Assembly: GCA_964543385.1 (NCBI GenBank)
Contig: CAZIYE010000001.1
Location: 210,001-242,000 of the forward strand
Length of the DNA: 32,000 bases
Origin: an uncultured Candidatus Saccharibacteria bacterium
GTDB taxonomy: Bacteria; Patescibacteriota; UBA1384; XYA2-FULL-43-10; 1-14-0-10-43-13
Direction of reading: 5' to 3'
In this document: positions 2,599-6,077 of the stretch, piece after piece
Numbering within the stretch: position 1 is the first letter of the stretch
Layout: each line of letters starts with the position of its first letter
Notes under the pieces: generated by a model
The model's input: only the letters and a program-made list of their open reading frames with translations
Databases searched by the model: none
What the model was told of the DNA's origin: nothing
Made by a program: the position numbers and the translations under genes

Positions 2599-2630
2599 TA
2601 AATAAAAAATGGAGCCGATGACCGGAATTG

Positions 2631-2661
2631 CCCGTCTCGCCTTTGGCGTAGCCGAGGCGGA
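2631..2661 (-). other. 31-nt GC-rich hairpin insertion in the T loop of the outer tRNA (between positions 55 and 56)
   Basis: Removing 2631-2661 restores the T loop ttcaatt of the inner tRNA exactly. RNA sense is UCCGCCUCGGCUACGCCAAAGGCGAGACGGG, containing a CGCC-AAA-GGCG hairpin and outer CCGCCUC/GAGACGG pairing with 1 mismatch. Confidence 0.6.
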
Positions 2662-2677
2662 AACCGGTGACCTACTC

Positions 2678-2727
2678 TCCCGATGTTTCTATCGGGATCC
2701 CGATCCCAGTTTCCATGGGCATCGGGA
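2678..2727 (-). other. 50-nt double-hairpin insertion in the 3' strand of the outer tRNA anticodon stem
   Basis: RNA sense is UCCCGAUGCCCAUGGAAACUGGGAUCGGGA followed by UCCCGAUAGAAACAUCGGGA. Each module is closed by a 7-bp UCCCGAU/AUCGGGA clamp. Removing it restores ggagt opposite actcc. Confidence 0.6.
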
Positions 2728-2731
2728 CTTA

Positions 2732-2847
2732 CTACTAACACTATTCGTCTGGAGCCGTTGACCGGAATTGAACCGGTGACCTACTCCTTACCATGGAGTT
2801 GCTCTACCAACTGAGCTACAACGGCACCTGACGAATAGTAATAATAA
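2732..2847 (-). repeat. Inverted repeat forming an 18-bp helix that encloses tRNA-Thr(GGT)
   Basis: 2732-2749 pairs with 2830-2847. Ten consecutive Watson-Crick pairs are formed by ctattcgtc plus its 5' neighbour a (2740-2749) against gacgaatagt (2830-2839). The helix then extends with 1 mismatch (2738/2841). Three positions (2739/2840, 2735/2844, 2732/2847) are C-A on the plus strand but G-U wobbles on the minus-strand RNA. Confidence 0.75.
2750..2825 (-). tRNA. tRNA-Thr (anticodon GGT), CCA end encoded; nested inside the outer tRNA-like gene
   Basis: The reverse complement gccgttg-ta-gctc-agttggta-gagc-a-actcc-atGGTaa-ggagt-aggtc-accgg-ttcaatt-ccggt-caacggc-t-cca is a perfect 76-nt cloverleaf. 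Confidence 0.93.
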
Positions 2848-2870
2848 ATGGAGTTGCTCTACCAACTGAG

Positions 2871-2926
2871 TCCCGAGTCTCGCTTGAAGCTCGCTCGGGA
2901 TCCCGGCAACCGAAGGTTAGTCGGGA
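2871..2926 (-). other. 56-nt double-hairpin insertion in the D stem of the outer tRNA (between positions 10 and 11)
   Basis: RNA sense is UCCCGACUAACCUUCGGUUGCCGGGA followed by UCCCGAGCGAGCUUCAAGCGAGACUCGGGA. The first module contains AACC-UUCG-GGUU, a cUUCGg tetraloop that exists only on the minus-strand reading. Removing it restores ctgag|ctaca as in the inner tRNA. Confidence 0.6.
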
Positions 2927-2958
2927 CTACATCGGCATCACCTATTATTAACGAAAAG

Positions 2959-5348: not shown

Positions 5349-5690
5349 ATGGTAAAAGTCAATATTGAAGACCTTGAAGATAAGTCGCTCTTTTGCAAAG
5401 ATTGCGGAAGCAAATTTATTTGGACAGCTGGCGAACAAAAATTTTTTATAGAGAGAGGCCTCCAGAATATTCCCAAGCGCTGTAAGGTCTGTACCGCCAA
5501 GAATAGAGACAAACTCCGAGAAAAACACCCGATGTGGTGGATAAAATGCCAAAAGTGCGGCAAAAAAAATGAGGTTCCTTTTGAACCCCTTAGCGAGGAT
5601 GTATATTGCGAAGAGTGCTTTTTAAAAGAAATTGAGAAAAGAAATAAGAAAATATCAGATCTGGGCGAAACGATCCCGGAACAAAATTAA
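5349..5690 (+). CDS. Zinc-ribbon protein (CxxC...CxxC, zf-trcl-like probable zinc-binding domain)
   Basis: 113 aa. It contains CKDCGSKFIWTAGEQKFFIERGLQNIPKRCKVC and a second CxxC...CxxC unit (CQKCG...CEEC). An aaagg motif lies upstream of the ATG. Confidence 0.75.
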   Translation: MVKVNIEDLEDKSLFCKDCGSKFIWTAGEQKFFIERGLQNIPKRCKVCTAKNRDKLREKHPMWWIKCQKCGKKNEVPFEPLSEDVYCEECFLKEIEKRNKKISDLGETIPEQN

Positions 5691-5755: not shown

Positions 5756-5786
5756 AAAAATCCCGGCTCTCAAACTATAGGCCGGG
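5756..5786 (-). terminator. Intrinsic terminator downstream of rpmB
   Basis: Stem cccggc (5762-5767) pairs with gccggg (5781-5786). On the minus strand the hairpin is followed by AUUUUU. Confidence 0.6.
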
Positions 5787-5813
5787 ACGACAAATCAAAA
5801 TACTGCAGTACAG

Positions 5814-5966
5814 TTATTTCTTTATTGTCTTGAGACACCTAGTGCAAACCAAAACACCATTTACCTTTTGAAGGTTTGGTTTAAACTTTCTTTTTGTGTG
5901 GATTTGTGAGTGAGAAATCTGGTTACCCGCAACTGAACTTTTATAACATATGGCACATCTTCCCAT
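5814..5966 (-). CDS. rpmB: 50S ribosomal protein L28
   Basis: The track ORF 5814..6074 has an implausible N-terminal extension. The internal ATG at 5966 is preceded by AAGGAG. It gives MGRCAICYKSSVAGNQISHSQIHTKRKFKPNLQKV..., the L28 signature (GN.vSHS..tKR.f.PNLQ). Confidence 0.88.
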   Translation of the reverse strand: MGRCAICYKSSVAGNQISHSQIHTKRKFKPNLQKVNGVLVCTRCLKTIKK

Positions 5967-6077
5967 TTGTATTCTCCTTGAAAAAATGATTGGTAAAGAA
6001 CTAAACTTTTTGATAAAATATATAGAGTCTATCAAAGACTTAAATATTTTATCAGAATTAGTTAATTTAATCAACCC

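Follow-up and report, generated by a model that had tools for sequence, protein, structure and literature searches.

Hairpin modules in an interrupted tRNA-Thr gene of a Candidatus Saccharibacteria bacterium belong to two dispersed repeat families

The G+C-rich hairpins that interrupt a tRNA-Thr-like gene in an uncultured Candidatus Saccharibacteria bacterium are members of dispersed repeat families. Four of them form two tandem pairs of a double-hairpin repeat, and the fifth belongs to a repeat family that is independent of it. With a probability of roughly 0.6, we regard the hairpins as DNA-level repeats that are tolerated in a disabled tRNA shell and are neither spliced out nor parts of a tRNA. 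The locus lies in the 32,000-nt window analyzed here (contig CAZIYE010000001.1, positions 210,001 to 242,000), and all coordinates refer to that window.

Results

Architecture of the tRNA-Thr locus

The outer tRNA-Thr-like gene (2610..2936, minus strand) has the acceptor stem GCCGAUG/CAUCGGC and carries all five hairpin modules. An intact tRNA-Thr(GGU) (2750..2825, minus strand), identified by ARAGORN and by Rfam at 71.6 bits, lies inside it and is free of modules. Folding places this inner tRNA at the tip of an A+U-rich leader/trailer stem of about 11+6 bp (2731..2847, minus strand). It is the sole Thr(GGU) among the 43 tRNAs of the genome (G000). The outer gene lacks an anticodon loop because a whole tRNA occupies that place. 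A search of the whole window with Rfam at the gathering score returned six ordinary tRNAs only, and the modules match no family.

The modules are numbered in the order in which the minus strand is read. In the D arm, m1 (2926..2901, minus strand; TCCCGACTAACCTTCGGTTGCCGGGA) is a 26-nt hairpin that opens the pair directly after G10 of the outer tRNA, and m2 (2900..2871, minus strand; TCCCGAGCGAGCTTCAAGCGAGACTCGGGA) is a 30-nt hairpin that closes it and is followed by C11. The second pair begins directly after G39 with the 30-nt "B-type" hairpin m3 (2727..2698, minus strand; TCCCGATGCCCATGGAAACTGGGATCGGGA), which has a 7-bp clamp, a 4-bp inner stem, and one bulged base. It ends with the 20-nt "A-type" hairpin m4 (2697..2678, minus strand; TCCCGATAGAAACATCGGGA), which has a 7-bp stem and a 6-nt loop and is followed by G40. 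On the plus strand, m4 reads TCCCGAT-GTTTCT-ATCGGGA, the commonest short form in the double-hairpin family. The join within each pair (2871-2926 and 2678-2727) is ...CGGGA|TCCCG.... The remaining module, m5 (2661..2631, minus strand), is a 31-nt hairpin, (T)CCGCCTCGG...CGAGACGG(G), that sits between U55 and C56 of the outer T loop.

The coordinates and sequences that the first-pass annotation gave for the four paired modules were correct when rechecked on the sequence, as was its split of the T loop between 55 and 56. It had described the inserts as lying inside helical parts of the tRNA. The insertions are real, but their sites are helix ends (G10|C11 and G39|G40) and are effectively junctions, not mid-stem positions. 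Its cUUCGg tetraloop does not hold, since it was read from AACC-UUCG-GGUU, one G too many; m1 is AACC-UUC-GGUU. Although m1 does contain CUUCGG, closing a tetraloop there would put a C.U mismatch beneath it, and the minimum-energy fold of UAACC-UUC-GGUUG is a 5-bp stem with a UUC triloop.

The four TCCCGR...YCGGGA clamps in two back-to-back pairs are real. The pattern TCCCGR-N4-24-YCGGGA has five matches in the window compared to 0.03 expected, and 0 of 100 shuffles contained at least five. The 0.9-Mb genome has 10 matches compared to two for the reversed control, and 4 of the 10 are within the outer tRNA-Thr gene. The modules are also the G+C-rich blocks in A+T-rich DNA that they had been taken for: G+C is 50-63% in m1-m4 and 71% in m5, compared to 37.5% across the window. 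The 333-nt region folds with a z score of -7.0, and every module forms its own hairpin. A chance cluster of palindromes or an assembly artefact would account for the small copy number in this genome and nothing more. The excess of matches, the recurrence of the same nest with homologous m3/m4 in two independent assemblies (G019 and the metagenome contig L094), and related copies in dozens of genomes reduce its probability almost to nothing.

Variation of the locus among relatives

G001, a sister species in the same genus, has a plain tRNA-Thr(GGU) at the position of the outer gene and between the same flanks. The nested arrangement is absent from the tRNA-Thr(GGU) loci fetched from most of 60 relatives. 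A search for wider homologues of the nest found one contig, L094, in the metagenome scan and none in the scan of genome contigs. The modules m3 and m4 lie at the same 39/40 site in G000, G019, and L094, and the D arm is also conserved in all three. In G019, m3 is kept and the end of its clamp has C-G instead of U-A, and in L094 the inner stem of m3 is wholly exchanged from CCCA/UGGG to AAGU/ACUU. The A+U stem differs from that of G019 by a C-G to U-A double change that preserves pairing. These compensatory changes in m3/m4 and the A+U stem suggest that the structure of the outer RNA matters. Other parts of the locus vary. The D insert of G019 is a different hairpin and its T arm is replaced, and the inner tRNA sits in the anticodon loop here but in the D arm in L094 and G039.

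The idea that the outer molecule is itself a functional tRNA-like non-coding RNA, with the modules as lineage-specific expansion segments kept in the mature RNA, would be consistent with the shared 39/40 site, the conserved D arm, the fold z score, and an intact acceptor stem with internal compensation. Two ordinary tRNA alleles, one inner and one outer, would in any case each have a self-consistent acceptor stem. The proposed RNA is missing from the sister species and most relatives, has lost its T arm in G019, and holds the inner tRNA at different positions. Many other tRNA identities show this architecture as well, there with a nuclease ORF enclosed. We consider this explanation improbable.

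The double-hairpin repeat family

The family was defined operationally by a covariance model (R1) as two adjacent hairpins, each with a TCCCGR...YCGGGA clamp, joined as GGGA|TCCC. In the consensus, a short hairpin, TCCCGAY-loop-RTCGGGA, is joined directly to TCCCGAY-inner stem-loop-inner stem-bulged C-RTCGGGA. Both pairs in G000 match the strict family pattern. The tandem-pair pattern was found in 10/44 genomes of the order, 22/162 of the class (up to nine copies), and 16/401 sampled from the phylum, whereas the reversed control pattern was found in none of the genomes searched. The R1 model detects the double hairpin in 24/44 genomes of the order. In G000 it detects two copies only, both in the tRNA-Thr locus. 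The m2+m1 pair, which was left out of the training set, scores 39.2 bits (E = 5e-7) on the plus strand and 22.9 bits on the minus strand. The m4+m3 pair was part of the training set and scores 59.3 and 40.0 bits, respectively. The better plus-strand scores show that both pairs run antisense to the tRNA. Antisense copies are also seen in L094 and G157, whereas an RNase P RNA copy and six ORF-linked copies in tRNA fragments are sense. The repeat has an intrinsic polarity and occurs in both orientations relative to host RNAs.

The stems covary. Paired cells make up 97.4% of the total compared to 88.8% in shuffles, and double changes occur in 26 cells compared to 9.5 expected; neither value was reached in any of 500 shuffles. 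The inner parts of the hairpins are self-complementary above shuffles (mean z = -1.7, 80 hairpins). The six other single TCCCGR...YCGGGA matches in G000 are located in long ORFs (three) and intergenic DNA (three), and none is tandem. In one of the intergenic matches, the clamp caps an extended palindrome. No match to the strict pattern or to R1 was found in the G000 rRNA genes (16S, 1450 nt; 23S, 2822 nt).

The modules are therefore peculiar neither to the outer tRNA-Thr gene nor to tRNAs. The proposal in the first-pass annotation that they are a family of small structured insertion elements agrees with these data, since the tandem pair has a polarity of its own and is dispersed as a repeat across many genomes and contexts, and m5 falls into a second family. 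The opposing idea that the motif is simply common in intergenic DNA holds for the class, where it is a generic dispersed repeat, but not for G000, where it is rare.

A second repeat family at the T loop

The family of m5 has a conserved asymmetric clamp, TCCGCCTCGG...CGAGACGGG, and a variable center. Of 162 genomes of the class, 25 contain it, the richest with 17 copies, and control matches were zero. A hairpin of this family recurs at T loop 55/56 in four other outer shells, among them those of G032 (Val), G023 (Ala), and G006 (Arg). Copies are also found on intergenic A+T-rich stems.

Genomic contexts of the double-hairpin copies

Copies are located in intergenic DNA, in helix P13 of RNase P RNA, as modules nested within modules, and, repeatedly, in orphaned tRNA fragments, where a gene for a small GIY-YIG nuclease is often the neighbor. 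One copy lies straight after the rplL stop codon, and beyond it is a synonymously recoded duplicate of the last nine codons. At tRNA loci the copies are always in orphan or outer fragments (Ala, Lys, Val, Ile, Pro, and Thr), in one case a fragment beside an intron-bearing tRNA. None of the 40 distinct copies in the fetched loci overlaps an intact tRNA; the tRNA copies that carry the repeat are the non-functional ones. D-arm inserts in unrelated tRNAs lie at positions 9/10, 10/11, 12/13, and 15/16. The flanks are often AG|...|CT, but this range of positions and the differing flanks at other copies led us to reject a single strict target site. According to another proposal in the first-pass annotation, the modules may be protein-binding elements or retained expansion segments. 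On this point, the compensatory changes in the P13 copy argue for hairpins of this kind being transcribed and having to fold. The G005 RNase P RNA scores below the Rfam gathering cut-off, and RNase P RNAs of this kind are reported to need lowered thresholds (PMC8172020).

An 82-90-aa GIY-YIG ORF lies within 600 nt of 7/39 distinct pairs. The ORF-linked copies are sense in 6/6 cases and are positioned 9-34 nt ahead of the start codon. Small GIY-YIG proteins are encoded in the cassettes of G041, G036, and G023. G000 has one small GIY-YIG gene, at C1:645730-645978, whose 82-aa protein has UPF0213 proteins as its closest solved relatives. It is in a cassette at tRNA-Asn, where the orphan fragment holds a 58-nt hairpin insert. 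The G000 pairs are about 430 kb from this gene, and neither adjoins a nuclease gene.

These contexts bear on the idea that the hairpins serve the precursor transcript as functional RNA modules. Their presence in the D arm and T loop would destroy the elbow of the outer tRNA so that RNase P, 3' processing, and other tRNA enzymes act on the inner tRNA only, and in the ORF cassettes they would act on the 5' end of the nuclease mRNA as stabilizers or insulators. Such a role is consistent with the D-arm and T loop 55/56 inserts that independent shells of different tRNA identities carry, with the uniformly sense ORF-linked copies, and with the compensatory changes in m3, the A+U stem, and the P13 copy. 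The recurrent sites and the sense copies could mean selection for function instead of passive tolerance. On the other side, both G000 pairs and the L094 and G157 copies are antisense, many copies lie between genes or in contexts other than tRNA, the insertion site in the D arm varies, and G019 has a different D hairpin and a T arm that is simply replaced. Nor does the shell need disabling, since the tRNA that it encloses, alone or together with an ORF, has already inactivated it. Overall, we think a functional role unlikely.

Removal of the modules from RNA

The first-pass annotation also raised the possibility that the modules are intervening sequences, and this was not upheld. Removal after transcription, in the manner of archaeal non-canonical tRNA introns or of rRNA intervening sequences cut by RNase III, would have to restore a working outer tRNA. 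Loss of m3+m4 does restore the anticodon loop and stem on their 3' side (...AGUAAG|GAGU), and the D stem and T loop become whole once m1+m2 and m5 are taken out. Archaeal non-canonical introns and split tRNA genes are likewise interrupted at D-arm, anticodon-stem, and T-loop positions. Unlike them, the present locus is bacterial and has an intact replacement tRNA. Its hairpins are closed from first to last base and lack the bulge-helix-bulge motif at their junctions. No match to EndA (PF01974) or RtcB (PF01139) was found in the 98.7%-complete G000 genome, although positive controls were detected, and archaeal-type introns were rejected on these grounds. RNase III needs stems longer than the 7-11 bp present here, and an outer gene freed of its modules would still carry a complete tRNA where its anticodon should be. 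Excision is thus highly improbable, and the modules are probably kept in the RNA.

Discussion

We favor the tolerated-repeat reading given at the outset. The four clamp hairpins are two copies of one dispersed DNA repeat and the T-loop hairpin is a copy of another. Both families would have spread as DNA across the class, whose genomes are small and A+T-rich. Copies would survive only where a self-contained hairpin is harmless: in intergenic DNA, at the tips of other hairpins, in tolerant stable-RNA loops such as RNase P helix P13, and in tRNA copies that are already redundant. An insert carrying a complete replacement tRNA-Thr(GGU) would have interrupted the resident tRNA-Thr, and the outer shell, now dead, would have gathered its hairpins afterwards or come with them. 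Each module, once transcribed, would fold on itself and would neither help nor hinder the ordinary 5' and 3' processing that frees the inner tRNA. Because the host copy is already disabled by the spare tRNA-Thr inside it, the hairpins are most likely tolerated selfish DNA. The distribution of the repeats, including their presence in some and absence from other close relatives, suggests that they are mobile. Against this reading, no transposase, target duplication, or fresh insertion was seen among the copies, and G000 holds just two tandem copies, neither beside a nuclease gene.

Such movement would most likely be tied to the small GIY-YIG nuclease cassettes that colonize tRNA genes in these genomes. 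A specific form of this link is tentative. The double hairpins may serve a tiny single-domain GIY-YIG nuclease as cognate recognition sites in single-stranded DNA and in effect mark the ends of a family of mobile cassettes centered on that nuclease. Such cassettes would home into stable-RNA genes (tRNA D, anticodon, and T loops; RNase P helix P3), carry or regenerate a working copy of the target, and leave hairpins in the displaced fragment; solo pairs such as those in G000 would be footprints of cassettes whose nuclease gene has been lost. Ssn proteins, the CDD clade cd10448, are single-domain GIY-YIG nucleases of single-stranded DNA with hairpin repeats termed NTS or SRM (Chenal et al. 2025, PMC11893778). 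Those repeats are 20-50-nt hairpins with a TCCCG...CGGGA-like core (NTS, CGTCATTCCCGCGMAVGCGGGAATCYRG); they are oriented, have a critical C just past the palindrome, and flank genes for ~90-aa single-domain GIY-YIG proteins (PMC11893778). The present repeats resemble them in the seven pairs beside 82-90-aa GIY-YIG ORFs and in the bulged C retained by the B-type hairpin; tRNA-gene duplication is not described for Ssn, unlike the loci studied here. The SRM consensus HGTCWY-N0-2-YYVSBRH-N0-5-WNVSBRG-N0-2-RNCYNB has no match in 2591-2950 and one in the whole G000 genome, no excess over about 1.7 in shuffles. The modules do not match this expression, and we do not assign them to the published SRM/NTS repeats.

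REP/BIME repeats, which are mobilized by RAYTs (Y1 transposases of the IS200/IS605 type) and recognized as hairpins in single-stranded DNA, are also dispersed, imperfect palindromes that have a conserved bulge and are often paired. A link to them was rejected. The Y1 transposase (PF01797) has no match in G000 or in six other carriers (G019, G005, G006, G021, G023, and G160). Y1 genes are present in the two multi-copy genomes tested first, but across the class their association with the double hairpin is weak (16/22 versus 71/140 genomes, p = 0.07, genomes not independent), and 5/6 Y1 genes examined in multi-copy genomes have no flanking hairpins of the double-hairpin type.

Mitochondria, Rickettsia, and Neisseria are known to have small hairpin repeats within essential RNA genes. 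The Rickettsia palindromic elements (RPEs) are small palindromic repeats of reduced genomes that are inserted and tolerated in protein and stable-RNA genes. They share this tolerance within genes with the present repeats, but they are single palindromes of 100-150 bp in another lineage. The closest likeness of design is to the mitochondrial double-hairpin elements (DHEs) of Allomyces and other fungi and, in a wider sense, to the repetitive hairpin-forming elements and GC clusters of mitochondria. Like the repeats described here, DHEs are short, G+C-rich, and built of two adjacent stem-loops in an A+T-rich genome; they are scattered between genes and through the variable regions of structural RNA genes, and their primary sequence varies while the stems are conserved. 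This likeness is one of design only. DHEs are organellar and the present repeats are on bacterial chromosomes, and no sequence relationship is expected. Unlike DHEs, the present repeats recur in orphan tRNA fragments and have the specific TCCCGAY/RTCGGGA clamp. In Allomyces, DHEs are found together with mobile endonuclease ORFs, which supply the displaced end of the gene anew as a foreign copy, and the rplL and tRNA duplications found here resemble this. Fungal DHEs within genes are reported as not removed from transcripts (PMC2800124).

We found no specific description of such hairpin elements in the literature on CPR/Patescibacteria. The repeats explain why tRNA and RNase P RNA genes look "expanded" and evade standard gene finders in the group of ultra-small uncultured bacteria that G000 appears to fall into, and such shells should not be annotated as introns or as novel tRNA-like RNAs. 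They also mark the recurrent overwriting of tRNA genes by inserts that bring a spare copy. If the GIY-YIG link holds, they would point to a new class of mobile element with hairpin-specific nucleases.

The outer tRNA-Thr gene is broken up by five hairpins

The outer tRNA-Thr-like gene (2936..2610, minus strand) has a readable acceptor stem (GCCGAUG/CAUCGGC), D arm, and T arm. Its anticodon stem is reduced to a 4-bp remnant (ACUC/GAGU), and its anticodon loop is replaced by an A+U-rich stem of ~11+6 bp. The tip of this stem carries a complete inner tRNA-Thr(GGU) (2825..2750, minus strand) identified by ARAGORN and Rfam (71.6 bits), the sole tRNA-Thr(GGU) among 43 tRNAs in this 0.9 Mb, 98.7% complete genome (G000). 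Five G+C-rich hairpins break up the outer gene: m1 and m2 (2871-2926) lie at the G10/C11 junction, m3 and m4 (2678-2727) at G39/G40, and m5 (2631-2661) at U55/C56 in the T loop. The predicted fold of the full 333-nt nest of outer and inner genes has this architecture (z = -7.0). The positions of the four clamp hairpins and their CGGGA-TCCCG joins agree exactly with the first-pass annotation. G+C content is 50-63% in the clamp modules and 71% in m5 versus 37.5% in the window. The AACC-UUCG-GGUU tetraloop it described was misread: m1 is UAACC-UUC-GGUUG, and its minimum-energy fold has a triloop.

The modules match no known Rfam family, and the literature searched contained no description of this element type. 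Archaeal-type introns were rejected from the fold, in which the hairpins are closed from first to last base without a bulge-helix-bulge motif; neither EndA nor RtcB was found in the 98.7% complete G000 genome. RNase III intervening sequences were excluded because the stems are just 7-11 bp.

The double hairpin is a dispersed repeat

The clamp modules are members of a dispersed repeat family. The 3' part of the outer gene used as a query returned two short look-alikes, both in other genera of the family and both tandem pairs; one is intergenic, upstream of a miaB-like gene (G021), and the other is inside an RNase P RNA (G005). The strict pair pattern occurs in 10/44 genomes of the order, 22/162 of the class (at most 9 copies, in G105; G110 has 5), and 16/401 of a phylum sample, and its reversed control had 0 matches in every genome searched. 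A covariance model of the double hairpin (R1), trained on 16 copies, detects variants with other clamps in 24/44 genomes of the order, and its only matches in G000 are the two pairs of the nested gene. These searches bear out the proposal that the modules form a family of structured elements. Across the 16 aligned copies, 97.4% of cells are paired compared to 88.8% in shuffles, and there are 26 double-sided changes compared to 9.5 expected; none of 500 shuffles reached either value, and the signal collapses in slid controls. The inner parts of 80 hairpins also exceed shuffles in self-complementarity (mean z = -1.7). The family has polarity. The short hairpin, often TCCCGAT-GTTNNA-ATCGGGA, comes first; in the second (B-type) hairpin, the 3-4-bp inner stem varies and a single bulged C is conserved. 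Modules also sit within the loops of others, as seen in G156 and G160. In G006 (L052:1470-1585), a double hairpin immediately follows the rplL stop codon and is itself followed by a duplicate of the final nine rplL codons and stop (AGATVEMK*), in which seven third-codon positions depart from the in-frame version. The arrangement looks like a gene end replaced by a foreign version with the original kept as an orphan.

The single-hairpin pattern TCCCGR-N4-24-YCGGGA has 5 matches in the window versus 0.03 expected. The genome-wide search proposed in the first-pass annotation gave 10 matches in G000 versus 2 in the reversed control, and the G000 rRNA genes, which it also named as possible sites, contain no copy. 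The six other single matches in G000, none in tandem, comprise three within long ORFs and three intergenic hairpins, including an extended palindrome with a clamp cap. The fifth match in the window is a lone hairpin rather than a tandem pair (TCCCGGC-N13-GCCGGGA, 5761-5787); it is located between ORFs at 5349-5690 (+) and 5814-6074 (-), and R1 does not match it. Hairpins with a TCCCGA...TCGGGA core at G000 C1:641174-641191 and C1:662636-662649 are prolonged into long perfect A+T-rich stems (for example, CAATAAAATACC-TCCCGAAATCGGGA-GGTATTTTATTG). This design, an AT stem with a GC cap, was also noted in the first pass elsewhere in the window.

The m5 hairpin belongs to a second, separate repeat family. 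Its pattern, CCGCCTCGG-N6-18-CGAGACGG, is present in 25/162 genomes of the class (control 0). G039 has 17 copies and G042 has 13, and the family also sits on intergenic A+T-rich stems. Members occupy the same T-loop position, between UU and CAAnU and in the sense orientation, in outer shells of tRNA-Val (G032), tRNA-Ala (G023), and tRNA-Arg (G006). In G019 and in the metagenome contig L094, the D-arm insert of the outer tRNA-Thr (site 9/10) is of a third hairpin type, CCUGCCUG-YCGG-CAGRCAGG, which L094 has at T-arm site 53/54 as well. It is found as CCTGCCTG-YCGG-CAGRCAGG at L012:1480-1500 and 1708-1725 and on the minus strand of L094 at about 1955-1936 and 1718-1699.

At tRNA loci, pairs lie in displaced fragments, some of them near GIY-YIG ORFs

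The fetched loci contain 40 distinct pairs, and none of these overlaps an intact tRNA; those at tRNA loci are always within a displaced fragment. An upstream duplicate of the tRNA's first 17-21 nt, with the pair exactly at its G10/C11 junction, is present in G041 (Ala), G036 (Lys), and G023 (Val); an 85-90-aa GIY-YIG ORF comes after it, and then the intact tRNA. The same build is found in G160 (Ala) and in G097 (Ala, pair at 12/13), and in G024 the fragment and pair lie immediately upstream of a tRNA with a group I intron. The G000 type of complete nest recurs at the Ile locus of G160, the Pro locus of G157 (which includes an ORF and has its pair in the T loop), and the Val locus of G032 (which also includes an ORF). 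Outside the window, G000 has a tRNA-Asn cassette (C1:646050..645651, minus strand) in which fragment nt 1-12 (TCCCTGATAGCT) and 13-22 (CAATGGCAGA) are separated by a 58-nt G+C-rich multi-hairpin insert (TCCGACTCGCGAAGCGAG...ACGGG); the D-loop remnant supplies the start ATG of an 82-aa GIY-YIG ORF, after which comes the intact tRNA-Asn(GUU). The nearest solved relatives of this small protein are the UPF0213 proteins 1ywl and 1zg2. Separately, an exact 20-nt copy of the tRNA-Arg(UCG) 3' end (GAATCCCTCTGGGCGTACCA) lies 110 nt downstream of that tRNA (G000 C2:821-1026), the kind of scar that integration of an element at the 3' end of a tRNA would leave.

A small GIY-YIG ORF lies within 600 nt of 7/39 distinct pairs, compared to a chance level that we estimate at about 2%. 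The modules may be recognition sites or ends of small GIY-YIG cassettes, a tentative reading that is the best lead on their movement. They resemble the SRM/NTS repeats of Ssn nucleases in the TCCCG...CGGGA clamp core, orientation, critical C, and link to ~90-aa single-domain GIY-YIG proteins (PMC11893778). These likenesses are suggestive, but the modules fail the published consensus and were rejected as members of that motif. The tRNA group I intron of G024 contains GTCATTCCCGCGAAGGCGGGAATC (L056 ~1683-1710), which fits the Neisseria NTS/SRM core and lies 130 nt downstream of the tRNA fragment bearing the double hairpin.

REP/RAYT elements were not demonstrable. The Y1 transposase is absent from G000 and six other carriers, and the flanks of the Y1 genes examined are without TCCCGAY-type double-hairpin modules. 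The association of Y1 transposase with the double hairpin across the class is weak (16/22 vs 71/140 non-independent genomes, p = 0.07). In G105, inverted hairpins TCCCACCTCGTAGGTGGGA and TCCCACCTACGAGGTGGGA (L089:1340-1358 and 2060-2078) bracket a 225-aa Y1-transposase-like ORF in a REP/RAYT-like layout, with a clamp that resembles but does not match TCCCGAY; five other such ORFs are without bracketing hairpins.

RNase P RNA copies retain pairing

Large helix extensions are known in RNase P RNAs of this group, as are group I introns in some of its tRNAs (PMC8172020). In G005, P13 carries a 56-nt insert versus 11 nt in the model (cmscan), right before the conserved GGUAAGAG. The pair reads TCCCGATGTTACAATCGGGA joined to TCCCAATATCGCAAGATCGTCGGGA in G005 and CTCCGATGTTAAATTCGGAG joined to TCTCGCAATCGTTGGATTGTTGAGA in G019. 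Double changes between these clamps preserve pairing (U-A to C-G once and C-G to U-A twice), and the inner stems are unrelated in sequence, both being paired. Similarly, m3 has a U-A to C-G change in G019 and an entirely exchanged inner stem in L094. These paired changes argue that the hairpins are transcribed and would have to fold, and they fit inert, self-contained expansions of the kind reported for fungal double-hairpin elements and yeast GC clusters, which are retained in transcripts (PMC2800124). The RNase P RNAs of G000 (327 nt) and G021 (330 nt) are short, and P13 of the G000 gene has no insert.

Other insertions were seen in these RNAs. The G019 gene (L047:1230-1934) has an 86-aa GIY-YIG ORF, apparently in the P3 helix loop, framed by a 17-bp stem (CCCCTCACCCTTGATGC/GCATCAAGGGTGAGGGG) with the P1 and P2 5' strands upstream; the P1-P3 alignment given by cmscan is poor, being forced onto the ORF 3' end. 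The 617-nt G005 RNA (L044:1235-1851), at 90.5 bits below the Rfam gathering score of 100, contains, besides the P13 double hairpin, a ~120-nt A+T-rich long-hairpin repeat twice: in P12 and, as a 126-nt insert, close to the gene 3' end.

Orientation and history of the locus

R1 scores the plus strand higher for m3/m4 (59.3 vs 40.0 bits) and m1/m2 (39.2 vs 22.9 bits); thus, both G000 pairs are antisense to the tRNA. The L094 homologue and the G157 T-loop pair are antisense as well; sense orientation is seen in the RNase P copy and the six ORF-linked copies. Because the double hairpin has its own polarity and occurs in both orientations relative to host RNAs, it is most simply a DNA-level insert. 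G001, of the same genus, has a plain tRNA-Thr(GGU) between the same flanks (...taataataggtgat on one side, ttttt(t)atttattgattagatg... on the other). Within the genus, the nest and its modules thus vary by presence or absence. The Thr locus is also nested in G019, L094, and G039 and part-duplicated in G015. G019, from another genus, has the nest core in common with G000, m3/m4 included (89% identity over 209 nt). It departs from G000 in having another hairpin as its D insert, at 9/10, in the replacement of the outer T arm by CCCCGA-CAAG-UCGGGG, and in an exchange of the inner and outer acceptor alleles.

The recurrence of inserts in the D arm and at T-loop 55/56 could come from target preference. 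Many flanks read AG before and CT after the insert and many copies sit at hairpin tips, a possible target signature; a single strict site is contradicted by D-arm positions spread from 9/10 to 15/16. Alternatively, nests could persist only when their direct repeats are broken up. That an RNA-level role underlies the recurrence is improbable in our judgment. Our preferred explanation, with a probability of roughly 0.6, takes the modules to be DNA-level repeats that are tolerated within a tRNA copy left redundant by an insert with a spare tRNA. The arrival of that insert would make the resident tRNA-Thr copy redundant, the modules would fold on themselves in the primary transcript, and the inner tRNA would be cut out, the modules then being thrown away with the outer shell.
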